Source: a virus
Reading direction: 5' to 3' (one strand)
DNA: 64,000 bases
IMG/VR virus record: IMGVR_UViG_3300032401_000010
The notes beneath the pieces were generated by a model. The model was not told the origin of the DNA. It worked only from the letters and a program-made list of their open reading frames with translations, and made no database searches. Both the position numbers and the translations under genes were made by a program. This document shows positions 8,954 through 60,101 of this stretch, in pieces (within the stretch, counting starts at the first letter, position 1; each line of letters begins with the position of its first letter).

Positions 8954-10165
8954 TCAAATAGTTTCTTCTAGCTCAGACTGTATTTCTTTTAAAGTTGGAT
9001 CAACCGTCAAACATAATTGCAACATGGTTTTAGCTGCGTTTGCTGGAATTTTCCCAGCAACATTAAGATCGCCTAATGCAAACGTTTTTAAATCCGGAGT
9101 CTTATTCCTTTTTAATGCAAATAAAGCTCCAGGCCATAATTTTGTCATAGCCTCTAAAGCAAAATCTTTCATTATCAAATGATGTTTAAGGCTATCATAA
9201 TCAATTTGAGTACGACGAAAAACTTCAGCAATTATTGGTTTTAAACGCCTTATTCTATTTGCTATCATCTCAGGCATCATACCAATAATATCATCATCTT
9301 TTTCTAATAAGATAACCTCCACGCACCCTCTGTAGGAAGTAGATAAGCTGTCACGCATATGATTATATATGACATACAACGGACTCTTTACTTTAACTCT
9401 ATTGAAGTTGGCGTCCTTAATAACAACGCCTTCTTTTTCTTTTGGATCCCAGTCTTTTACGACTTGGATCATATGATTTATATTTTTAAAATGATATTTT
9501 TCTACCGCAGGAACCTTTAAATTTGCCGCCAAAACTTCTGGCGAATACTCAGTTAAAGTTTTGTTATCACGGACTGCTAATAATGTTATAGATAATTTCT
9601 TGTAATCACAAACTATTCTATTAAAAGGACTTGTTAATTCAAAACAGTATGTGCAATTCTTGTCTATCTGCAACATCCCTTGGTTTCCATAGTTCATTAA
9701 ATCTTGAATATCATTTCCAAGATTCATTTCTTTTACTGCTAAATCAAATAATTTAGCAAAGGTTATGTCGCTTTCATCTATATTGCCATCAGCCTCCGGC
9801 CTAGAACGAGTTCCTACACACCACCTATCTTGTTCAAGATCCCAGTAAGCAATGCACATCGTTCCGTCTAATTTGTCTTCAAAACAAGCTGTGCTCCAAT
9901 CTATCTCGGCTGCTGTTTCTTTTTGTTCTAGATTGAAAAATCTAAACATTGGACAAGCAACTATATCATACGTTCCTTCTCTTAGGATTAATCCTCTGCA
10001 TTGTTGCGAAAGCGGATCTTGCTCTCTTGCTTCAATTTGATCATATGTTAACCCTATTTTCCCATTATGAATATAAGATTTAACTCCATGTTCTATTTTT
10101 AGATCTTGAAGAGTTTTTCCGGAACGCAAATATTTTTGAACGTGTAGCATTATGTCAAATACCAA
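8954..10165 (-). CDS. RNA ligase 1 (T4 RnlA-like)
   Basis: Segments align by eye to T4 Rnl1: CRGLILREGTYDIVACPMFRFFNLEQ matches CRGIMFEMDG..RPMEKFFNLNE; the adenylyltransferase KxDG motif I is FEDKLDGTM (T4: LTKEDGSL); EGVVIKD...FNRVKVKSPLYV matches the T4 motif IV/V region. Confidence 0.75.
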   Translation of the reverse strand: MVFDIMLHVQKYLRSGKTLQDLKIEHGVKSYIHNGKIGLTYDQIEAREQDPLSQQCRGLILREGTYDIVACPMFRFFNLEQKETAAEIDWSTACFEDKLDGTMCIAYWDLEQDRWCVGTRSRPEADGNIDESDITFAKLFDLAVKEMNLGNDIQDLMNYGNQGMLQIDKNCTYCFELTSPFNRIVCDYKKLSITLLAVRDNKTLTEYSPEVLAANLKVPAVEKYHFKNINHMIQVVKDWDPKEKEGVVIKDANFNRVKVKSPLYVIYNHMRDSLSTSYRGCVEVILLEKDDDIIGMMPEMIANRIRRLKPIIAEVFRRTQIDYDSLKHHLIMKDFALEAMTKLWPGALFALKRNKTPDLKTFALGDLNVAGKIPANAAKTMLQLCLTVDPTLKEIQSELEETI

Positions 10166-11443: not shown

Positions 11444-12373
11444 ATGGATATCATAATTAAACGTGGTGAGATAGTAAATTTAGAAGATTTACCACCTTGG
11501 TCTATAGCCTTGGACGGATTTGTACAAGGCCCTAAAATTGATACAGAAAATCATCGCTATAGTTTTGATCACCATGCCGGTTGTCTTAGATATTGCACAA
11601 CTAGCGCTTGTATGCAGGCTTGGACAGCAGTGTTATTAGGATTGGACGCAGACAAATATACGATATATGCAAATGATGTAGATGGCGATGTTTGTGCTGC
11701 AATATGGTGTTTGAAAAATCCTGAAAAATGTAGCGACCCCAGAGCTACTAAATTAATTAATGCTATGGGCCTTGGTGATATGCACGGCGGAGCCTTTCCA
11801 AATAACGGGATGACAAAAACAATCGAATGGGTCTGCTCCCCAGAGACAGATTCCAAAAGAGATCAAGACTATTGGAAGCTTTCCGATAATGGCTTGAATT
11901 CCATTTTGGAAGCCGTGCTACATCGAATAGATACATACGTAGAAGGTGAAGCAAGCATAGAGGTTTCCAAACAGCCTAAGCACGGCGAATATAAAATTAT
12001 TCGAAACGAAAATAATTGGGTGTTGGTCGAATCTACAGACCCACATGCTTTTAGCGCAATCTATCAAGCCGGGTTTGATAGAATCGTTTTGGCAAGACCG
12101 CAAGATGATAATTCTATAGCTTATTCAATTGCCAAAAAAAGCGACTTCATAGATCGTTTTCCGTTAGAAATAATGTATAGCAAATTAAATGAACTGGAGC
12201 CTGGTTGGGGTGGCGGCAGCACAATTGGCGGAGCCCCAAGGAATCATGACGGCTCTAGAAGTAAATTAACTATGGAACAAGTAGCAGAAATTATAGATGC
12301 AATTGTGGCCGAAGAACATATATCAAAAACAAAATCATCGCTTCCGCCAGATAAGATTACTTTACAGACTTAG
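11444..12373 (+). CDS. hypothetical protein with DHH-like and GGG-rich motifs (possible phosphoesterase); the only confident plus-strand gene in this neighbourhood
   Basis: GGAGAA ribosome-binding site 8 nt before the ATG. Motifs FDHHAG, VDGDVCAA and GWGGGSTIGGAPRNHDG resemble DHH-family motifs but in non-canonical order. Confidence 0.45.
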   Translation: MDIIIKRGEIVNLEDLPPWSIALDGFVQGPKIDTENHRYSFDHHAGCLRYCTTSACMQAWTAVLLGLDADKYTIYANDVDGDVCAAIWCLKNPEKCSDPRATKLINAMGLGDMHGGAFPNNGMTKTIEWVCSPETDSKRDQDYWKLSDNGLNSILEAVLHRIDTYVEGEASIEVSKQPKHGEYKIIRNENNWVLVESTDPHAFSAIYQAGFDRIVLARPQDDNSIAYSIAKKSDFIDRFPLEIMYSKLNELEPGWGGGSTIGGAPRNHDGSRSKLTMEQVAEIIDAIVAEEHISKTKSSLPPDKITLQT

Positions 12374-12662
12374 CATGTAGAAACTGAGAGAACCGCTTTC
12401 GAATGGAGGCTAGCATCCTCACAAAGAGTCCGTGCCTCAACCTCGTCTGTAAAAAGGACCAGATCAACAGGTTCAGTCTCTTGCTTATCTCGGCTTACCG
12501 AGCAATCTTTTAGAAATGTTTTTCTGGAGCAAGACTGGTAATCAATGGTTCTCCTGATCGAAGGGGCTGACGCTTCACCTCGAATCACTTCCTCGGTGTG
12601 TTTTTGACACAGACAGTTATCCTCCCATCGCGCCTCGGGACATAGCAATCTCATACACTTTA

Positions 12663-13100
12663 TCATTCGGCAACACCCCCATAAATTTTAATGAACGTAT
12701 AAGCATCTTCTCGTTTTTGGAACCACCAACCTGCATCGTAAATCTCGCCATCATTAAGACAGATAGAGCCATTGCGAGACCAATCACGCGAGTAGAACCT
12801 CCCCGTAGCAATATCATCAAATTCGCGCGTTATATCCTCGGACGATTTGTCAACTTTGTTTTTGATTGCAAGCTTTACAAATGGTGGATGACGATTTTTT
12901 TCGCCACTAGAATCCACAAAATCACATCCTGGATAACCATCTAACGACACTTCATGCCAATCCCACATCAATAATTTCTTTTTCCATCCGGCATTGTGCT
13001 CCATGTGCGTCTGCCCCGGAATGCATCTAGCCTCACATTCGACACATCTAGCATCACGCAAATCAGCTCGCTGGCTCGGATTGTGTTTAAATGATGTCAT
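12663..13100 (-). CDS. hypothetical protein encoded in a GC-rich island
   Basis: 145-aa ORF in a roughly 50% GC segment. Possible Cys-active-site motif (NGSICLNDGEIYD) with weak L,D-transpeptidase-like resemblance. Confidence 0.35.
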   Translation of the reverse strand: MTSFKHNPSQRADLRDARCVECEARCIPGQTHMEHNAGWKKKLLMWDWHEVSLDGYPGCDFVDSSGEKNRHPPFVKLAIKNKVDKSSEDITREFDDIATGRFYSRDWSRNGSICLNDGEIYDAGWWFQKREDAYTFIKIYGGVAE

Positions 13101-13325
13101 GATTTGATGCTCCTAATAAAAACGTCGTAGTTGTCCCTGTGCCAGCTCCGTTGCACCCGGTCGTGACCCTCATGCGCTCGCCGAACAGACTAGCGCCATC
13201 GTATCGTCCCGGCGCTTGTGACATGTTGGCGTAGCCCATGTATGTCGCGAACAGCAGCGCGATGATGTCCGGATCGGAGGTGCCAACGACGAGGCTATGC
13301 GCCGGAATGTAATAGGCGTTCATCG

Positions 13326-14375
13326 TCATTTTGTCAAAAAACCTTCGCCATGAAGTTTTAATATTACTCGCCCAAGTTTATCATGTCTGCGCTCAAACAC
13401 AGGGCGAATAACCACGCCTTCTCGAACGTGTTTGTTATCTAATGTTGAACTGCCTTCAGCAAGCTCATAAGCTTTCTCTTTATTCCATGGCCCCATATAA
13501 AGAACAGGAGCTATAGGCAAATCAAGAGCGTTAGTTATAGAAATAAACTCATCAAAATCTACATACCTCCGAAGATTACGATCATATATATCAAATAATC
13601 TAAGACCAGCCTCACCGCGCTTGACACTATATGGAAAACCTCCGGTGTAACCACATGTCTCACCATAGATAACAATTTTTCTATTGTTAGCCGCCTGCCA
13701 TGACGCAAGCTTATTTTCTAAATTATAAAGCTCAGCGGCCTTGCCCCAGCCACCAATACCACTTTTCTTTACATTAGTTCTAGAACCAATCCATAAACGA
13801 TTATCTTCATAACAAAATCTTGCGTTTTCTCCATGAATCTTTTCGACCATAATTACTTCTTCGCCATCAACAAAAATATTTTTCCAGCGCCTTAATCCTT
13901 CAACATCAGTATACGTAGGCATGTAATGATAATCAGGCTCATTCAGTCTTGTGTCGCCAAAGTTATATCCCTCATCTGGTGGCGGCTCATATTTATCAAT
14001 ACCTAACTTTTCCCTAACGTCTTCGCCTTCAACCATGCCTTCGTCAGCATGAATAAGTAAACCCATGCTAAATACACCACGAAGGCGCCTAGCTTTAATC
14101 CTGCGATACTTTGCTGGTACTTGACCAATGGGAGGCGTAGGCTCTTTTATATTTCCTTCCTTGTCCTTTTTCGGAGGAGGAGCAAGGAAGTAGAATTTTT
14201 CATTATCTGGACATAAACTATCTACCGGAATATAAACAACTAAATCTCCAGGCTTAAATTCTCCAAGTCTAACGATAGCAGGATAGTCCGCTACCTTAGT
14301 AATACCTAAGGTGTCGGCATCGGGATGTTTCGTAATTTCCCCAATACGAACAACTTCTATATGAAATTCGGTCAT
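13326..14375 (-). CDS. RNA ligase with N-terminal tRNA-binding OB (Myf/EMAP-like) domain
   Basis: N-terminus IGEITKHPDADTLGITKV resembles the HP(D/N)ADKL tRNA-binding OB fold. The nucleotidyltransferase motif I is MVEKIHGENARFCY (KxHG(E/T)N, as in Rnl2, DraRnl and NgrRnl). Confidence 0.6.
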   Translation of the reverse strand: MTEFHIEVVRIGEITKHPDADTLGITKVADYPAIVRLGEFKPGDLVVYIPVDSLCPDNEKFYFLAPPPKKDKEGNIKEPTPPIGQVPAKYRRIKARRLRGVFSMGLLIHADEGMVEGEDVREKLGIDKYEPPPDEGYNFGDTRLNEPDYHYMPTYTDVEGLRRWKNIFVDGEEVIMVEKIHGENARFCYEDNRLWIGSRTNVKKSGIGGWGKAAELYNLENKLASWQAANNRKIVIYGETCGYTGGFPYSVKRGEAGLRLFDIYDRNLRRYVDFDEFISITNALDLPIAPVLYMGPWNKEKAYELAEGSSTLDNKHVREGVVIRPVFERRHDKLGRVILKLHGEGFLTK

Positions 14376-14391
14376 TTGTTTTTCTTTTTTG

Positions 14392-14463
14392 AGCTGGTGA
14401 AGGGATTTGAACCCCTGACCGGTAGCTTACAAAACTACTGCTCTACCCCTGAGCTACACCAGC
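14392..14463 (-). tRNA. tRNA-Thr (anticodon UGU); no encoded CCA
   Basis: Minus-strand sequence GCTGGTGTAGCTCAGGGGTAGAGCAGTAGTTTTGTAAGCTACCGGTCAGGGGTTCAAATCCCTTCACCAGCT folds as a cloverleaf: 7-bp acceptor stem, D arm GCTC/GAGC, anticodon stem GTAGT/GCTAC with loop TTTGTAA, and T arm AGGGG-TTCAAAT-CCCTT. Confidence 0.85.
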
Positions 14464-14499
14464 ATGTGTTTTTATAATCTAACCATCCGCAACCGAATG

Positions 14500-14841
14500 T
14501 CAACCCCCTCTTTTTCTTTCTATAAAATAATTTTCGTAATAGAATGCTAGTTCTTTACCAGAAATATATGTCTCTACAACATTTGCTGCTACAATAAATG
14601 GATCATCTTCCGCCCTTACTGTTCTATTGAACAACCAAATTAGCCGGTGCCTTCTGTCTTCTGGCAGATTAGTATCGGCCTCAAATTTTTCTATTAAGAA
14701 CAAACCGATACAATACAAATCAATTGTACGTTGGTTTGCTCTCCATTGAGGAGGTTGCCCCTCTCTCATTTTTGCTTCGAACCTTGCTTTATGAGGCTCA
14801 AGTTCAAGTAGTAATTGTTCTTTATTATACAAATTGACCAA
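14500..14841 (-). CDS. hypothetical protein
   Basis: 113-aa ORF. Confidence 0.4.
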   Translation of the reverse strand: MVNLYNKEQLLLELEPHKARFEAKMREGQPPQWRANQRTIDLYCIGLFLIEKFEADTNLPEDRRHRLIWLFNRTVRAEDDPFIVAANVVETYISGKELAFYYENYFIERKRGG

Positions 14842-15427
14842 GAATTATTTTAGCAAGAAATTTTGAATCTAACTTTTTAATTGCTTGCTCAATGATTGCA
14901 CCATGATCAAAAGCAATTTCTGAACATTCTGTAACATCACACCACGCAACTTCTTGTGCGTCATCTGCCGCTTTTGGATTAACACTATTTATATCAATTA
15001 CAGACGAGTACGCATGTGAAATGACTCGTCCTCTTGGATCTCTTTCAGGAGCATCAAACACTCCAACAAAAATATGAATTGCCCCAGCGCTGCGCTGTCC
15101 AGCACAAGCATATAGATCAATGCCAGTCTCTTCTAGCACTTCTCTAATAGAAGCATCACTAATAGTTTCATCCATATCCACAAATCCTCCAGGCAAAGCC
15201 CAGCAATTTTGAAAAGGTGGATTCTTTCTTTTTATTAATAATACTTTCAAACCATTGCCAGGCTCATCTAAACGTTTTTTTGTATCAATGCCAAATATCA
15301 CATGGTCTACGGTAACACTTGGTCTTGGAAAGTTGTAAGCGTAATACTTCTTTCCATCAATTTCAATTATCTTATCATCTGTTTGCGGCATTTTGTTTTT
15401 TCTTTCAGTAAATTGATCGTCTGTCAA
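14825..15427 (-). CDS. Nudix hydrolase
   Basis: Canonical Nudix box GGFVDMDETISDASIREVLEETGI (Gx5Ex7REVxEExGI). Confidence 0.75.
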   Translation of the reverse strand: MTDDQFTERKNKMPQTDDKIIEIDGKKYYAYNFPRPSVTVDHVIFGIDTKKRLDEPGNGLKVLLIKRKNPPFQNCWALPGGFVDMDETISDASIREVLEETGIDLYACAGQRSAGAIHIFVGVFDAPERDPRGRVISHAYSSVIDINSVNPKAADDAQEVAWCDVTECSEIAFDHGAIIEQAIKKLDSKFLAKIILGQFV

Positions 15428-15447
15428 ACCATAACAGACGGCAAGCC

Positions 15448-15684
15448 TTATTTAATTTCAAAACTTGGAATAATAATAGTTGTTGCTGACTCTGGCATAA
15501 ATTGATCATCTGTTAAATCAGAGAGAATATAGAGCGTATTATATCTTGATTCAATAAAATCGAACAGGTTCATTATTGAAACCACAAGTTCCACTTCTTC
15601 AAGCTCTTTGTTAAGTAGTAATGCGTTAAACTCTTCTTCCAGAACTTTTGTCTGCTTTTTATATTCACCTATAGTTTGTGGCAT
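15448..15684 (-). CDS. hypothetical small protein; its start region sits inside a 29-bp tandem duplication
   Basis: 78-aa ORF. Its N-terminal codons MPQTIGEYK appear twice in the DNA at about 15658-15713. Confidence 0.35.
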   Translation of the reverse strand: MPQTIGEYKKQTKVLEEEFNALLLNKELEEVELVVSIMNLFDFIESRYNTLYILSDLTDDQFMPESATTIIIPSFEIK

Positions 15685-15713
15685 TTTATATTCGCCTATA
15701 GTTTGTGGCGTTT
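15658..15713. repeat. 29-bp tandem duplication covering the start of ORF 15448..15684
   Basis: tatattcacctatagtttgtggcatttta and tatattcgcctatagtttgtggcgtttta. Confidence 0.75.
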
Positions 15714-15846
15714 TAAGAATTTCATATGCGTTCTGTCATACTTCCACACATCTCCGCCTAACCAACGAACATGAGTTGTTCTTTTGGTAGATTTTATTAC
15801 AGTGCCAAAGCGCCATGGCCACCATTCATCTACAACTTTTGTTTTA

Positions 15847-16671
15847 TTAGTAAGCAACATTTAACTCTGGCTTCTTTGCTGTGCCTTGAACACGAATTAA
15901 TCTACCAAGACTTCCATCCTCTTCAAAGACTTGAGCCGTTAGAATACCAGTATCATACACAGCCGAGTCTAAATTGCAAGAAAATTTATAGAATTTCGCC
16001 TCGCCGTCTTTTTGAGCGGCATGACCAGAAGCAATATATCCAAAACGACCATCATATTTTTGATGCCACGAATCTCCGCCCTCTTTAGATTTAACTAAAG
16101 TGGATACTCCATTGATATCTTTCCAGATAAGAGGAATCATTCTACCATCTTCATCAACGTCTCTTACATAAACTACCTCAATATCTTTCTTGATATCGCC
16201 CCAGGTATGATGCGGAGTGACGCCAGCATGAACCACGGTAAGACGGGATCCGCTTTCAAACTGAAATGATAAAGCCAAAGGCTGGCGCCTCCACCAAATC
16301 AAAGCCTCACTCGGATCTTTCTTTGACTTCCGAATATGCTTAATTTCATGGTTGCCAGGGACGGCCCAGCCAACGCCACGCTTACGCAGAGTCATAAGCT
16401 CTTGCGTCATAGCCTCGGCTGTTTTCATACCAAAGCCTTTATCATATATGTCCCCTACTGATACAACCCACATTTTTCTGGAAGGATCAATCTCATTCAT
16501 CATCTTTTGAAATTGTTCTGGGTGCTCATGCACGTCTCCAAATACGGCAATTTTAGTGCCGTATGGAACTTCAATGTTGAGGTAATCCTCTGCTTTTGTT
16601 TCTGTTTTGCTCATTTTATTTCCTTCTTTTATGGTTATTTTTGTATAATGTTGATGAAAAAAATAGCTCAA
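15847..16671 (-). CDS. calcineurin-like metallophosphoesterase (lambda-phosphatase/PrpA-like); candidate RNA end-healing phosphatase
   Basis: Motifs VFGDVHEHPEQF (GDxHG-like), GDIYDKG (GDxxDRG) and GNHE. Confidence 0.7.
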   Translation of the reverse strand: MSYFFHQHYTKITIKEGNKMSKTETKAEDYLNIEVPYGTKIAVFGDVHEHPEQFQKMMNEIDPSRKMWVVSVGDIYDKGFGMKTAEAMTQELMTLRKRGVGWAVPGNHEIKHIRKSKKDPSEALIWWRRQPLALSFQFESGSRLTVVHAGVTPHHTWGDIKKDIEVVYVRDVDEDGRMIPLIWKDINGVSTLVKSKEGGDSWHQKYDGRFGYIASGHAAQKDGEAKFYKFSCNLDSAVYDTGILTAQVFEEDGSLGRLIRVQGTAKKPELNVAY

Positions 16672-17103
16672 TCCGATCCTGGTAAATTAATGGGAACATA
16701 CGTCGCGTTCCTTAGAGCCTTATATATTATTCATCAAAATGGTCATTGGAAATGTAAAGGGCCTAATTTTTATGCTCATCACTTAATGTTGGAGAGAATA
16801 TATAAGTCAGCAGCAGAAGACGCCGATTTGGCTGCCGAAAAAACAATTGGGTTATTTGGTAATGATTCCATCAATCTGCCTGCTCAATCTAAATTGATAC
16901 AACAAATTACAGAAAGATATTCTTCAGATAATCATATTGAGAATTCATTAAAAGCAGAGAAAGATTTTATCATTCTTTCGAAAAAAATATATAACACGTT
17001 AAAAGAAGCCGACTCTCTCAGTTTAGGATTAGACGATGCCATCATGTCTATTTCTAGCAATAGAGAGGGGAATATTTATTTGTTACAACAATCTTTAGCG
17101 TGA
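16648..17103 (+). CDS. Dps/ferritin-like protein
   Basis: YIIHQNGHWKCKGPNFYAHHLMLERIY matches the Dps signature (HNYHWNVKGPNFFALHELLEE). The start was placed at the in-frame ATG at about 16648, because the track's upstream extension overlaps the convergent phosphoesterase gene. Confidence 0.55.
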   Translation: MLMKKIAQSDPGKLMGTYVAFLRALYIIHQNGHWKCKGPNFYAHHLMLERIYKSAAEDADLAAEKTIGLFGNDSINLPAQSKLIQQITERYSSDNHIENSLKAEKDFIILSKKIYNTLKEADSLSLGLDDAIMSISSNREGNIYLLQQSLA

Positions 17104-21854: not shown

Positions 21855-22598
21855 TCAAATTTTTAGTATATGTGGTTTGCCGTCATGACCAATAGCAGCG
21901 TTACTAAAGGTTGTGCTACCTATGGAAAGCACACCATTACTAGGGTGAGCATGACCACACAGATACAATTTGAGTGGATTAGTAAGTTGATATGTTATAG
22001 TAGAGTTAATAAATGGATTGCCGATATGCTGTTCTTTTTTGGCATCATATGTATCAAGAATTCCATCTGGTGGACAATGTGCCACGAGAATATCAAGTCT
22101 ATCAAACATTTTAGCATCCTTAAGTCTTCGCAGAAATGTATTTACTTCTTTGCGAAGTTCATCAGGAGTACATTCAAAATTCCAGCAGTTTCGAATTTTC
22201 GGAACATATGGAAATCCGTACCATACGAAACCTTTATATTCAACTACTTTATTATCTAAATCAATAGCTTCTATCCCATTGTCATTCAAAATCTGACATG
22301 GATTTAGAAAATCATGATTGCCGGAACTCCAAATGAACGGCTTGCCTTTTATCCATTCTTTAATTGCTTTTATATTTGTGAGAAGCCATATCTTTTGGAA
22401 TTCTATCTCAGCTTTTCTTTTAGCGGCGGTTCGATTTGGTTCTAGCTCAATGCCGCGTTTTCCAAATGATTCACTTTTGTTATAAGCAAAAAAGTCTCCA
22501 GAACACACAACTACATCAAACTCCCCTGGGAGATCTATTAGCTGTCCATGGCAATCTGAAATGTGACATATAAGCATAATGTTATTGTAATCATTCAA
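21855..22598 (-). CDS. calcineurin-like metallophosphoesterase (second copy)
   Basis: Motifs ICHISDCHGQ, GDFF, GNHDF and GHAHP. The track starts it at a TTG codon that sits inside a 20-bp tandem repeat. Confidence 0.65.
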   Translation of the reverse strand: MNDYNNIMLICHISDCHGQLIDLPGEFDVVVCSGDFFAYNKSESFGKRGIELEPNRTAAKRKAEIEFQKIWLLTNIKAIKEWIKGKPFIWSSGNHDFLNPCQILNDNGIEAIDLDNKVVEYKGFVWYGFPYVPKIRNCWNFECTPDELRKEVNTFLRRLKDAKMFDRLDILVAHCPPDGILDTYDAKKEQHIGNPFINSTITYQLTNPLKLYLCGHAHPSNGVLSIGSTTFSNAAIGHDGKPHILKI

Positions 22599-24167: not shown

Positions 24168-24986
24168 TTATTCTTTTACAATCAAATCTCTGTTAACTCT
24201 AAATACATCATGCCCTGCATGAAGTATATTTAGAATAAAATTTCTATCAGCAACAAAATTTGGAATATTCATATCGATAATCCATTTGTTACGAGCAACC
24301 TCTCCCTCCTCCGTTCTTAGAATAACAGGAACTTTGTAAGCCGCTGTTCCTAAACGAAATGAATTTGGATAGAATGTTTCATATTCAATATCACATTTGG
24401 TTCTCAAAAGATCTATTTTTTCAGCAGATTTTTTTTCATGCAACATGCCCAAGGTTTGTTTCTTGCCATAAATTTTAGATAGTTCGGATTGTGCCGCCCC
24501 TGTTATTGCGTTTGTAGAACAATCTTGTTGTCGAAATATAAGGTTATTTGCAGCTTCAGTAATTGATGGGACAGCAAAAACTCTAGCATCAAAAATAGCG
24601 TCACCAACTATTTTTGGCGAATTTTCCATTGTGAATAAATTTTTAGCAAATGATAATGTTGTTATACTGGATACAATAGAAACTATTTTTTGTATTCTAT
24701 TTTGAAACCAAGGCTCGGATTCTAAAGACTGATCGTTTCTTATTACAAAAGTTATTTCATCACTTTGGTGATAAGCAAAAATGGCGCCTTCAATTTCCAT
24801 GGCGGCATGAAGCATTGTATTAGCCATAAGACTTAACATCTCATGACAATATGGACGTGGTAAATGTTTTGTTACCCTGCTAAAATTTTTGCCATCAACT
24901 CTTATTATTAATGGCAAACGTTTTATAATTTTATAATCATATGACTGTTCATACAATTTTTGTCTATCAGATAAAGATTCTTGCAT
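24168..24986 (-). CDS. Thg1-like protein (tRNA-His guanylyltransferase family 3'-5' nucleotidyltransferase)
   Basis: Aligns by eye to Thg1: IIRVDGKNFSRVTKHL matches VVRLDGRNFHRFAEKH; FAYHQSDEITFVI matches IAYGQSDEYSFVF; FRQQDCSTNAI matches WRQADCHINNL. Confidence 0.7.
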   Translation of the reverse strand: MQESLSDRQKLYEQSYDYKIIKRLPLIIRVDGKNFSRVTKHLPRPYCHEMLSLMANTMLHAAMEIEGAIFAYHQSDEITFVIRNDQSLESEPWFQNRIQKIVSIVSSITTLSFAKNLFTMENSPKIVGDAIFDARVFAVPSITEAANNLIFRQQDCSTNAITGAAQSELSKIYGKKQTLGMLHEKKSAEKIDLLRTKCDIEYETFYPNSFRLGTAAYKVPVILRTEEGEVARNKWIIDMNIPNFVADRNFILNILHAGHDVFRVNRDLIVKE

Positions 24987-43686: not shown

Positions 43687-44349
43687 TCAAGTCCCTAAAG
43701 CCAGTTTATTGCGCACTATCTCTTTAGATCTCCAATGATCATCCGTTTGCACATGATTTTTTCTTACCAACTTACTAACACTTGAGGCGAACGCAGAATC
43801 TTCAAATCCATAAACTAAACGAACTACAACGCCCTCTCTTTCCGGACCATAAAAAGAAGGCTGTTTCATAAATGATTCGGTAATTCTTTGTAGTTCTTTT
43901 TCCGTTTTAACTGTAATGTTAGCCAATTCTGGAACAGTATATAAGCCAAGTTTATTCGCCGTTTCTTTTACACCGTTCCAGCCTAACCAATAATGAATAT
44001 TTGGTTCAGTATTTATTATTCTTACTCCGAACATAAGAAAATAAGCAGGAAGTTTATCGTAAAAAATCGAATGTTTAGCTGCTACCCATTCTCCGAAAAT
44101 TTGCATATTTATTGGTATATTATGTTTTATAGAAGTATGCAAAGTTTTAAATTCATTAAAGGAAGGATGATTTGGTGGTCCCGAATGAGTACGAGCATAA
44201 CAACTATCATGCTGTAAACATACGTTACTTCCGTCTATTTTTTCTAATAGAACAAGTTCATGTCCCAAAAATGAATCTACAGATGATAAAATTTTGTCAT
44301 CTGATGTTCCGCTACTCCAAGGTAAATGAAAAGTTCTGGGATATTTCAT
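43687..44349 (-). CDS. RNA ligase-family nucleotidyltransferase (small Rnl2-like, KxDG)
   Basis: N-terminal MKYPRTFHLPWS and motif I LLEKIDGSNVCL. Confidence 0.55.
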   Translation of the reverse strand: MKYPRTFHLPWSSGTSDDKILSSVDSFLGHELVLLEKIDGSNVCLQHDSCYARTHSGPPNHPSFNEFKTLHTSIKHNIPINMQIFGEWVAAKHSIFYDKLPAYFLMFGVRIINTEPNIHYWLGWNGVKETANKLGLYTVPELANITVKTEKELQRITESFMKQPSFYGPEREGVVVRLVYGFEDSAFASSVSKLVRKNHVQTDDHWRSKEIVRNKLALGT

Positions 44350-48327: not shown

Positions 48328-48543
48328 AACAATGTCAATATATTCACTAAGTCAAAAACTAGGAAAAATTAATTTGGCTGGCACTTCAGGTACATAATCT
48401 GTTGGGAGCACACCGGTACCGTCGCATACGCCACAAGTTTCGCATGGATGACAGTCGCCAACATGCCAGCCACGCCCTTTGCACTAATGACACCGTACCT
48501 TATTTGCTTGATCCTTATGCTCGTCCATCACACATTCTCCGTG

Positions 48544-48635
48544 TCTCAAGTTCTGGAGTTGAACCAGAATCTCCCGGCCTATGGTCCGTACCGAAGTGCG
48601 TAGCACCGGAGTTCTACCGATTGAACTAACTTGAG
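48544..48635 (-). ncRNA. tRNA-like structured RNA (canonical acceptor, D and T arms; non-canonical anticodon/variable region)
   Basis: Minus strand: CTCAAGT-TA-GTTC-AATCGGTA-GAAC ... TCTGG-TTCAACT-CCAGA-ACTTGAG-A. The 41-nt central segment has no clean 5-bp/7-nt anticodon arm. Locally GC-rich and free of ORFs. Confidence 0.4.
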
Positions 48636-54674: not shown

Positions 54675-55075
54675 TTTACCTCAGCAATACTGTGTTCAGC
54701 TTTTTTTACGGCATCAGTTACCGCATTGATAGAATTTATTAGCTTTTCTTCCTCTTCGGACAATATTGGGACAATGAATCCATTAGGAAGCTCACCAGTT
54801 TGAAATTGACGTGGGATCTTAGCAGCATAAGAGCTGCCAATACCTGGAAAGAACACAATAATTTTTTCTGCTCTACCATTTTCGAATTCTTCTTTGAACT
54901 TTGAAAGCCTCTCCATTACCCTTTCATAACTCTCTTTGTCCATAGTGACCCCAAGAGAATCCGGCGGAATAGGTTCTGGCTCACCGACAATCGCTAGACG
55001 AACCGGCTGTCCACCAATAATGAACCGATATACAGTTCCTTCTTCTGTTGTGTTTAGCTTTGACATTATTCCCAA
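54671..55075 (-). CDS. hypothetical protein
   Basis: 134-aa ORF. Confidence 0.4.
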   Translation of the reverse strand: MGIMSKLNTTEEGTVYRFIIGGQPVRLAIVGEPEPIPPDSLGVTMDKESYERVMERLSKFKEEFENGRAEKIIVFFPGIGSSYAAKIPRQFQTGELPNGFIVPILSEEEEKLINSINAVTDAVKKAEHSIAEVK

Positions 55076-55719
55076 TAGTCTTTCCAGTTATCTTTAAACT
55101 GAGTTTGCAGTTTGTTCATATAGGCATTAGTTTTTATCTTGCACATATAAACTTTATCATCAACTACACCTTTGCAAACTACTCCTTCATTAACCGAATA
55201 CTTTCCGTTCCTTACATCTTCTGAAAATTGTCCAGAGTATTTTCCTTTATAAATTACTTTGGCAATATCAAAATCTTTAAAGTCATCCAAGAATTGTTGA
55301 GGTGGAATTATTTTTCTATCAGTCATTACATCTATTAAAGTTAATTTTTTAATATCTTTAGGATCATGTTGGCCAGCAAAAGAATTTGGGCCGTGATATT
55401 CCATAAAAATAATTACTTCATTATAAATATTATAGTTTGTGTTTTCGCAAACGAAATCTAATATTTTATCTGAAATATTTTCAATAAGCTTTAAAGTTTT
55501 GTCGTCGCCTAATTCTGGATGACATTTAAAGAATTCATTGATACCAACATTATTAAGCGGAAATCTATCACGGCGCGTTCCGAAATCTATCCAGCCCCAT
55601 TTCTTATTCCATACGACATGAATATTTGTTCCGTCATATTTCTCAAAAGCTATGCAGTTGTTAAGCAAACATTTTTCGCTATTTGGAATCTTTGAATAAG
55701 CTAAATGAATTTTAGACAT
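55066..55719 (-). CDS. RNA ligase-family nucleotidyltransferase (small, KxDG)
   Basis: Motif I AFEKYDGTNIHVVW; size matches a stand-alone adenylyltransferase domain. Confidence 0.5.
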   Translation of the reverse strand: MSKIHLAYSKIPNSEKCLLNNCIAFEKYDGTNIHVVWNKKWGWIDFGTRRDRFPLNNVGINEFFKCHPELGDDKTLKLIENISDKILDFVCENTNYNIYNEVIIFMEYHGPNSFAGQHDPKDIKKLTLIDVMTDRKIIPPQQFLDDFKDFDIAKVIYKGKYSGQFSEDVRNGKYSVNEGVVCKGVVDDKVYMCKIKTNAYMNKLQTQFKDNWKDYWE

Positions 55720-57934: not shown

Positions 57935-58143
57935 TATTTGTTAAACCATACAACATGAGTATATGTTTGATCTATGTTTGGTAGATCTATTTGTTCGTCA
58001 GTCATCTCTGACGATGTAGCATAATAGCCATTGCCATCATAACCATTATAACTACCAGATCGCACTGCTTTAGAAAACTCTTCCAAGGTCATGTGTTCCC
58101 CGTAATCAGGTATTGGTTCCATCCGTCTCGGCTTACTGAGCAA
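57934..58143 (-). CDS. hypothetical small protein
   Basis: 69-aa ORF. Confidence 0.3.
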   Translation of the reverse strand: MLSKPRRMEPIPDYGEHMTLEEFSKAVRSGSYNGYDGNGYYATSSEMTDEQIDLPNIDQTYTHVVWFNK

Positions 58144-59470
58144 TCGATTTAACCTTTTCCTGATACCATTTCCTAGCAGCTTCCATAACTGGCCTATTTA
58201 CTTTAGCCCAGTCAAGATTAGAAGCTTCAAGTTCAGCTCCGCTTTCCTTCTGCACGTCAGCCGTAATCCACTTTAAGAAGGCGCCTGTGAGCTTGGCATC
58301 ATACTGTCCGTTACATGCCGTAGTAACTGCCTGCTCAAGCCTTGCAGGAGTAACGAACATATCTACGAATTCATTAACGCTAGCAGCTACTTCAGGATCA
58401 ATCTGAACTGCCGCCTTCTGCTTGACTACCTTATGCTGTTCTCCTTTAGCTTTAAAAAACAGATCGTAATAATCAGAACGCATTATTACATTTGTATCAT
58501 CTTTTTTCAAAGGATATAAAACAATGCCTTCCCCGATCCCCTCTACATGGAAAACAGATTTAACCCAAGGATCACAAGCCTCAACTTTAGCCACCATCTC
58601 ATTTAGATTCTCGGCAGCCTTGCGCAACTGTTCAGTGTCTGCGAAATCTAAAACAATTTCTTCACCATACCAAGGAAGAACATATAGGTCAAGGTTAGGC
58701 AGAGAGGTGTGATCAATTAATAAATCAGCGATTGTTTTTGGCTCAGCATAATACCTGGACGTATTATCAGAGTTACCACATTGAATTGCAAACACTGCTA
58801 GAATCTTCTTGCCAATATTATTGATAGCTGTACCCTGTTGTATTGATTCTCCGCACCATTCTCCAAATACAGTTACTATTTCGTCCTTAACCATTTTCTT
58901 GAAGAAAGCCGTATTATTATCCACCCATTTAGCAAACCCAGCATTATCATTCTCTGGAGTAATAATACTGGTTCTGCTCTGAGCAAATACTTTCCCGTCA
59001 GGATGGATCTGAACAGCAGCATTCGTTCCATGCAATTTAATCTTAGCTTTGTATGTAACCGAAGGAAGTTTGTAAGACTCGCCAAGATTAGAACGAAGAT
59101 CCCCTAATCCTTTACGAACCCCAACTAACCCTTCAATCTGTGGCCAATAATGCATGCTAGCGCCAGAAGTATTCAAATCTTCTTTACAATACTCAGCAGT
59201 AACATCTGTACCAACGTCAGCTTCAGATTTACCTAATGCCATACCATACGAATGAAGTCCGCGAACCTTGGTAGAAGAAATTTTGGTTCCGTCCTTAAGT
59301 GTAGAACCACTAAGAACTATAACAACCTTATCATCAACTTCATAGATGTTCTCAAGGTTGGCTACGATTTGATTTGTTTCAAAACCTTCTGCTTCCATTT
59401 CGTATAAACGCAAAGCGTCTGCAAAAGGATGTTTCTCGGCCTTGATTACTTTCATTACTACAGCGGTCAT
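58133..59470 (-). CDS. RNA ligase with N-terminal tRNA-binding OB domain (NgrRnl/DraRnl-like)
   Basis: N-terminus VIKAEKHPFADALRLYE (tRNA-binding OB signature) and motif I KIKLHGTNAAV (KxHGTN). Confidence 0.65.
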   Translation of the reverse strand: MTAVVMKVIKAEKHPFADALRLYEMEAEGFETNQIVANLENIYEVDDKVVIVLSGSTLKDGTKISSTKVRGLHSYGMALGKSEADVGTDVTAEYCKEDLNTSGASMHYWPQIEGLVGVRKGLGDLRSNLGESYKLPSVTYKAKIKLHGTNAAVQIHPDGKVFAQSRTSIITPENDNAGFAKWVDNNTAFFKKMVKDEIVTVFGEWCGESIQQGTAINNIGKKILAVFAIQCGNSDNTSRYYAEPKTIADLLIDHTSLPNLDLYVLPWYGEEIVLDFADTEQLRKAAENLNEMVAKVEACDPWVKSVFHVEGIGEGIVLYPLKKDDTNVIMRSDYYDLFFKAKGEQHKVVKQKAAVQIDPEVAASVNEFVDMFVTPARLEQAVTTACNGQYDAKLTGAFLKWITADVQKESGAELEASNLDWAKVNRPVMEAARKWYQEKVKSIAQ

Positions 59471-59606: not shown

Positions 59607-60101
59607 TTACGTTAAATGATTATAAACTTGTCTCATTTCTCTTAGTTCGTTGTTGTCTAATTCTTTAGCCATCTTAATAGAATTACATATTTCGCACATT
59701 GTTTGATAGTTATTGATATTATCTTTACCACCCTTCGAGCGCGGAACGATATGATCCTTAGTCATCAGGATAAGATAATCGTTTTCTACAGCATACAAAT
59801 TAAAATGAGCAACACTTGGTTCATGATTATGAACGCGCTCTAATAAAAATAAAGAACCTGTTAAATTACATGCGGCACATTTAAGACTATTATTAAATAT
59901 TTTATAGCGATCCGAGTTCATTTTAACTGTGAACTGAATTTCATTAACTGTATATATTTTCTTTGCGCAACGTTTATCTTGAGTAACAAACGGCAGTACA
60001 TCACCAATATTAAATTGACCTATTACAAGAAGGTTACGAGTGCCTGCGTTTAAAAAATGCTTCTTAAGTTGTGGTCGCATCATGTCAGTATAATTGCGCA
60101 T
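59607..60101 (-). CDS. HNH endonuclease
   Basis: HNH core DHIVPRSKGGKDNINNYQTMCEICN. Confidence 0.6.
   Translation of the reverse strand: MRNYTDMMRPQLKKHFLNAGTRNLLVIGQFNIGDVLPFVTQDKRCAKKIYTVNEIQFTVKMNSDRYKIFNNSLKCAACNLTGSLFLLERVHNHEPSVAHFNLYAVENDYLILMTKDHIVPRSKGGKDNINNYQTMCEICNSIKMAKELDNNELREMRQVYNHLT

Follow-up and report, generated by a model that had tools for sequence, protein, structure and literature searches.

Two viral RNA ligases with N-terminal OB domains of the tRNA_bind class are assigned to different families, Rnl5 and Rnl2

A 64,000 nt stretch of viral DNA (record IMGVR_UViG_3300032401_000010; hereafter the window), from a large and probably huge phage, encodes two RNA ligases, here called Lig-A and Lig-B, each with an OB domain ahead of its nucleotidyltransferase (NTase) domain. 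The interpretation we favour, and consider moderately probable, is that Lig-A is an ordinary Rnl5 enzyme with a catalytic OB, that Lig-B is an Rnl2-type ligase with an accessory OB, and that the tRNA-Thr gene adjoining Lig-A is not a specific partner. Both reading frames lie on the minus strand, and their translations contain the HP(F/D)AD(A/T)L and KxHG(T/E)N motifs reported in the first-pass annotation. The features at the Lig-A locus are:

13326..14375, minus strand: Lig-A, a predicted ATP-dependent RNA ligase of the Rnl5 family (DraRnl/NgrRnl-type), 349 aa
14001..14375, minus strand: N-terminal OB domain of Lig-A (aa 1-125), with HPDADTL and RLRGVFSMG motifs
13329..13928, minus strand: nucleotidyltransferase domain of Lig-A (aa 150-349), motif I K179-I-H-G-E-N, C-terminal appendage absent
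14391..14463, minus strand: tRNA-Thr(UGU), 73 nt, CCA not encoded (ARAGORN; Rfam RF00005, 69 bits)
14474..14503, minus strand: candidate sigma-70-like promoter, TTGACA-16-TAGATT, matching 10 of 12 consensus positions (consensus match only)

Lig-A is classified, on its sequence, as a divergent member of the Rnl5 family. The motifs HPDADTL and KIHGEN lie at aa 17-23 and aa 179-184 of the translation. Pfam places the Rnl5 OB family (PF21189) at aa 8-107 (E 2e-12, 47.9 bits, cut-off 27) and PF09414 at aa 172-341 of 349 (E 2e-23), and TIGR02306 matches across the full length (E 3e-36) with a score of 124.9 bits, below the equivalog cut-off of 151.15. Relatives of Lig-A carry the JGI label 'RNA ligase (TIGR02306 family)'. 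Further matches were to phrog_968 (E 4e-39) and to the crystal chains of NgrRnl (E 4e-11, aa 10-324). Residues K179, E239, E319 and K340 are invariant among 35 homologs, and R162 is also conserved in the family alignment. Like the Rnl5 enzymes NgrRnl (PDB 5COT) and DraRnl of Deinococcus radiodurans (DR_B0094), Lig-A has an OB followed by an NTase domain and no C-terminal appendage. It resembles NgrRnl, from Naegleria gruberi, in its KxHGxN motif I, in having counterparts of Asp53 and Lys121, and in showing homology over both domains; it differs in being only about 20-30% identical (judged by eye from the alignment) and in having an OB loop of 35 aa, compared with 12 aa in most relatives. About 9 of the 35 family sequences in the alignment share the additional ~23 aa (within aa 58-92). 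Phage members of Rnl5 have already been reported (PMC4408790). Lig-A is thus a standard Rnl5 ligase, whose N-terminal OB is the family-defining architecture and no special fusion. A megablast search with positions 12000-17000 against deposited phages returned no match.

The OB domains of the two ligases are homologous to each other and to known tRNA-binding domains. The direct match of Lig-A to the tRNA_bind family PF01588 covers aa 6-28 only (14.4 bits, E 0.04) and is below the cut-off of 27. A family profile of its N-domain, however, matched the N-domain of NgrRnl (E 2e-13), the C-terminal tRNA-binding domain of MetRS (1mkh, E 4e-5; 5h34, E 1e-4) and the EMAPII-like domain of TyrRS (1ntg, E 7.5e-3), and alignment of the two N-domain families with hhalign gave a probability of 96.7% (E 3.5e-10). 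The HPxADxL signature common to both ligases is not, on these comparisons, a chance resemblance, and the Lig-A N-domain is best described as a diverged tRNA_bind relative that Pfam files under PF21189. The earlier proposal that each ligase joins an N-terminal OB domain of the Trbp111/EMAP type to a KxHG(T/E)N core agrees with the Pfam matches, profiles and hhalign results, and with the superposition described below; the KxHGxN nucleotidyltransferase is intact in both. Both N-domains share HPxADxL and (K/R)LRGxxSxG with Trbp111, CsaA, YtpR, MetRS-C, PheRS-beta B2 and EMAPII (PF01588); they differ from that class in being joined to a polynucleotide ligase, whereas its other members are standalone proteins or fused to aminoacyl-tRNA synthetases. 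Trbp111 needs dimerisation for tRNA binding. Both OB domains in the window are net acidic (Lig-A, -1, family median -2; Lig-B, -6, family median -3), unlike what is expected of a general RNA-binding module, and are assigned to the tRNA_bind class from sequence and, for Lig-B, predicted structure.

A catalytic role for the Lig-A OB is suggested by comparison with NgrRnl, where the OB, through Arg4, Asp53 and Lys121, touches the gamma-phosphate of ATP and the metal and is required for step-1 adenylylation (PMC7261155, PMC4408790). The counterpart of Asp53 in Lig-A, D52, is kept in 33 of 35 homologs, and that of Lys121, K128, is K or R in all 35 and lies just past the OB segment in a GIDKYEPP linker (family GIxKYEPP). 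Arg4 falls outside the alignment, and position 5 is H, R or K. By homology to NgrRnl, the OB of Lig-A would act through Asp52 and Lys128 to orient the pyrophosphate leaving group of ATP at lysine adenylylation, and the enzyme would then seal nicks in duplex structures with an RNA 3'-OH strand. The characterised substrates of Rnl5 enzymes are 3'-OH(RNA)/5'-PO4 nicks in duplexes, and not tRNA in particular (PMC7261155, PMC4408790, PMC5397189).

The tRNA-Thr(UGU) gene is real and does adjoin Lig-A, but it had been placed 17 nt downstream, which is correct neither in distance nor in direction: it lies upstream (5') on the same strand, with 15 nt between its end and the start codon, and is downstream in plus-strand coordinates only. 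As the candidate promoter, the TTGACA element of which is also found in an 86%-identical relative (L089), is just upstream of the tRNA, tRNA-Thr and Lig-A would form one transcription unit. The arrangement of tRNA-Thr(UGU) and ligase is kept only in L089, where the tRNA ends 1 nt before the ligase ATG and has itself diverged in sequence. At 55-58% identity the relatives lack a tRNA at this position, and an ORF abuts their ligase start. In three other Rnl5 phages (L016, L017 and L067) the gene directly upstream is instead a tRNA for Ile(UAU), Lys(UUU) or Gln(CUG), and most of the 80 Rnl5 viral loci scanned have no tRNA directly upstream. An isoacceptor-specific link to Thr(UGU) was rejected because these 80 loci show other tRNAs or none, and the functional pairing of Lig-A with tRNA-Thr(UGU) suggested previously amounts to nothing beyond ordinary synteny. 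A tRNA gene abutting the start codon does set the Lig-A lineage apart from NgrRnl and DraRnl. More generally, proximity to a tRNA gene is commoner for phage Rnl5 genes than for Rnl2-like ones (30 of 80 versus 8 of 60 loci; Fisher p 0.002, with redundant loci and phage types pooled). ACA makes up 34% of the Thr codons in the phage genes, so that plain codon supply suffices to explain the tRNA. We regard tRNA-Thr(UGU) as a normal phage tRNA, probably co-transcribed with Lig-A, and their adjacency as a likely reflection of the tendency of Rnl5 genes toward tRNA-gene regions. A second tRNA called by ARAGORN in the window, Arg(ACG) at 48543..48635 (93 nt), was unsupported by Rfam even at E 1 and is unconfirmed.

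The second ligase is organised differently, and its locus contains the following features:

58133..59470, minus strand: Lig-B, tRNA_bind OB plus predicted Rnl2-type RNA ligase, 445 aa
59186..59470, minus strand: N-terminal OB domain of Lig-B (aa 1-95), PheRS-beta B2 / YtpR / CsaA type
58496..59158, minus strand: nucleotidyltransferase domain of Lig-B (aa ~105-325), motif I K145-L-H-G-T-N
58136..58495, minus strand: C-terminal all-helical domain of Lig-B (aa 326-445), Rnl2-like
59607..60101, minus strand: free-standing HNH endonuclease directly upstream of Lig-B (PF01844/PF14279)

The translation of Lig-B carries HPFADAL at aa 14-20 and KLHGTN at aa 145-150. Its likely start is M1, because an N-terminal MxxxxMxV is kept in homologs, although gene callers chose M6. 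Lig-B matches tRNA_bind itself (PF01588, 39 bits, cut-off 27) as well as RNA_ligase (PF09414) and, over aa 134-441, phrog_548 (E 2e-49). An AF2 model computed from a 116-sequence alignment (pLDDT 94.4, pTM 0.87) predicts an OB fold for the N-domain, as the first-pass annotation had anticipated, and this domain superposes at 1.6-2.0 A onto 3bu2, CsaA and MetRS-C. In the remainder of the protein, E204, G315 and K340 are invariant over the 116 homologs, and helices are modelled at aa 365-444. The family profile aligns with residues 30-301 of T4 Rnl2 (2hvq), and Foldseek matched the model to full-length 2hvq (E 7e-11); for the whole model, the best Foldseek matches were NgrRnl chains, with ~380 columns aligned. 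Against the TIGR02307 equivalog Lig-B scored 22.6 bits (cut-off 197.15). Lig-B therefore resembles T4 Rnl2 (PDB 2HVQ, 1S68) and kinetoplastid REL1 in its Rnl2-type NTase, KxHGTN motif and helical C-domain, and differs from T4 Rnl2 in its ~95-aa N-terminal tRNA_bind OB. It is best classified as an Rnl2-like variant with an added 95-aa OB and not as an equivalog of T4 Rnl2. Within the Lig-B family, conservation is absent at the positions that align with Asp52 of Rnl5 and with the lysine of GIxKYEPP.

Thousands of OB-Rnl2 proteins like Lig-B are present in the databases, mostly cyanobacterial and auto-annotated, and the literature searched contained no experimental work on this type of fusion. 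The full-length fusion is absent from the deposited phage genomes of INPHARED. An apparent match in Acidovorax phage ACP17, covering 91% of Lig-B, was discarded, as the alignment was spuriously extended at its N-terminal end, running through a stop codon and a small ORF that is unrelated. Many representatives lack the OB; they are 320-350 aa long and 45-56% identical to Lig-B over aa ~105-445, and the OB is absent in 73 of 80 viral loci. Since sister ligases of about 50% identity do without it, the OB of Lig-B would be an accessory module. None of the seven OB-fused viral loci has a tRNA gene within 5 kb, and around Lig-B homologs on cyanobacterial chromosomes neither partner genes nor a repair operon are conserved. 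The HNH neighbour of Lig-B is also found in one relative (L093), and in another (P0051) the ligase N-terminus contains it as an in-frame fusion.

Besides Lig-A and Lig-B, the window encodes other proteins with predicted roles in RNA repair, together with an NAD-dependent DNA ligase and replication or repair genes:

8954..10165, minus strand: Rnl1-type RNA ligase, T4 RnlA/gp63-like (PF09511, E 2e-17; phrog_562, E 5e-40)
14825..15427, minus strand: Nudix hydrolase (PF00293), upstream of the tRNA/Lig-A unit
15847..16671, minus strand: calcineurin-type metallophosphoesterase (PF00149), upstream of the tRNA/Lig-A unit
21855..22598: second metallophosphoesterase
24168..24986, minus strand: Thg1-like tRNA-His guanylyltransferase / tRNA 5'-end repair enzyme (PF04446; phrog_4717, E 2e-56)
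43687..44349, minus strand: NTase-only 'mini' RNA ligase, 220 aa (PF09414; phrog_24030, E 1e-46)
55066..55719, minus strand: second NTase-only RNA-ligase-like protein, 217 aa, a weak assignment (PF09414, 24.2 bits, below the cut-off of 27; phrog_548, E 4e-7)

With five RNA-ligase-type genes and Thg1, the window appears to specify a broad RNA-repair kit. In T4, RnlA (Rnl1) and Pnkp repair tRNA-Lys cleaved by PrrC, a precedent for a phage ligase acting on broken tRNA anticodon loops, and the tRNA specificity of Rnl1 is provided by an appended C-terminal helical domain. The window resembles the T4 system in encoding an Rnl1-type ligase, while the added domain of Lig-A and Lig-B is an N-terminal OB and not a C-terminal helical one. 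Neither a polynucleotide kinase (Pnkp) nor a cognate anticodon nuclease was identified in the annotated parts of the window. Multi-ligase repertoires have been described in jumbo phages (PMC7824862).

Lig-A and Lig-B would, in the reading we prefer, be ATP-dependent 3'-OH/5'-PO4 RNA ligases of two kinds, each with an OB domain that shares ancestry with the tRNA_bind/EMAP fold. Lig-B would have arisen when a genuine tRNA_bind OB was added in front of a complete Rnl2-type ligase. Because OB-less sisters work and the catalytic OB residues of Rnl5 are missing, this OB is most likely an accessory module for substrate recognition or docking, which may recognise or dock a structured RNA such as tRNA so that a broken loop or stem is offered to the Rnl2 active site. 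The homology makes tRNA targeting by the Lig-B OB plausible. The PheRS-beta B2 domain, which we take to be among the closest structural relatives of this OB, reportedly makes no tRNA contact in the solved T. thermophilus complex. If the OB of Lig-B were instead a catalytic accessory, serving step-1 adenylylation or nick clamping in the manner of Rnl5 or DNA ligases, Lig-B would stand between Rnl2 and Rnl5 in evolution. The homology of the two OB families, the N-terminal position of the OB ahead of the NTase in both ligases, the NgrRnl chains as best Foldseek matches over those ~380 columns, and the acidity of the OB are all compatible with a catalytic role. The loss of the Rnl5 contact residues and the numerous OB-less sisters at ~50% identity argue against it, as does the isolated NTase domain of T4 Rnl2, which is said, in work attributed to Ho et al. 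2004, to self-adenylylate; we consider this explanation unlikely, while giving it some weight.

That both OB domains target tRNA, with Lig-A and tRNA-Thr(UGU) together repairing or replacing a host isoacceptor cut by an anticodon nuclease, is highly improbable, although the OB shares homology with tRNA-binding domains, the upstream tRNA ends 15 nt from Lig-A (1 nt from the ATG in L089), the arrangement is kept at 86% identity despite divergence of the tRNA sequence, and tRNA genes are enriched around phage Rnl5 loci. The upstream tRNA differs (Ile, Lys, Gln) in other Rnl5 phages and is missing from most loci, including the relatives at 55-58% identity, and the share of ACA among the Thr codons accounts for the tRNA by codon supply. 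An anticodon nuclease that cuts tRNA-Thr(UGU) specifically is not known to us. The Rnl5 OB, moreover, has a documented catalytic role, and nicked duplexes are the substrates on which the family has been characterised (PMC7261155, PMC4408790). A link of Rnl5 enzymes to DNA repair has also been described (PMC5397189), and one or both ligases might act on DNA-associated substrates, such as 3'-ribonucleotide nicks, RNA-primed replication intermediates or RNA:DNA hybrids. DraRnl accepts DNA or RNA alike in the 5'-PO4 and template strands, and its deletion slows genome reassembly after irradiation (PMC5397189); the NAD-dependent DNA ligase and the replication or repair genes of the window would fit such a role. 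The same DNA ligase, being dedicated to that task, also counts against it, as do Thg1, the Rnl1-type ligase and the nearby tRNA gene, which point to RNA or tRNA metabolism, and the tRNA-gene enrichment at Rnl5 loci, so that we give DNA-associated substrates little probability.

Outside kinetoplastid RNA editing, little has been learned about which substrates the nick-sealing ligases Rnl2 and Rnl5 act on physiologically (PMC5397189), and an Rnl2-type ligase with a recognisable tRNA-binding module would suggest a concrete one. We put forward only tentatively, as a possibility that is more doubtful than our assignment of the two families, that OB-Rnl2 proteins form a distinct class of ligases docking on tRNA to seal breaks, and that the shared OB links the origins of Rnl2 and Rnl5. 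If so, the class would be common across filamentous cyanobacteria and would occur, within viruses, almost only in huge phages, and Rnl5 would be an OB-NTase that dropped the C-domain and drew the OB into catalysis. As OB-bearing ligases and their natural OB-less sisters can be compared directly, a clean experiment is possible. For Rnl5, the homology of its OB to tRNA_bind and the over-representation of tRNA genes around its phage members together give a modest lead for action on tRNA. The five ligase-type genes and Thg1 of the window would also fit the layered defences of huge phages against host attack on the translation apparatus (PMC7824862).

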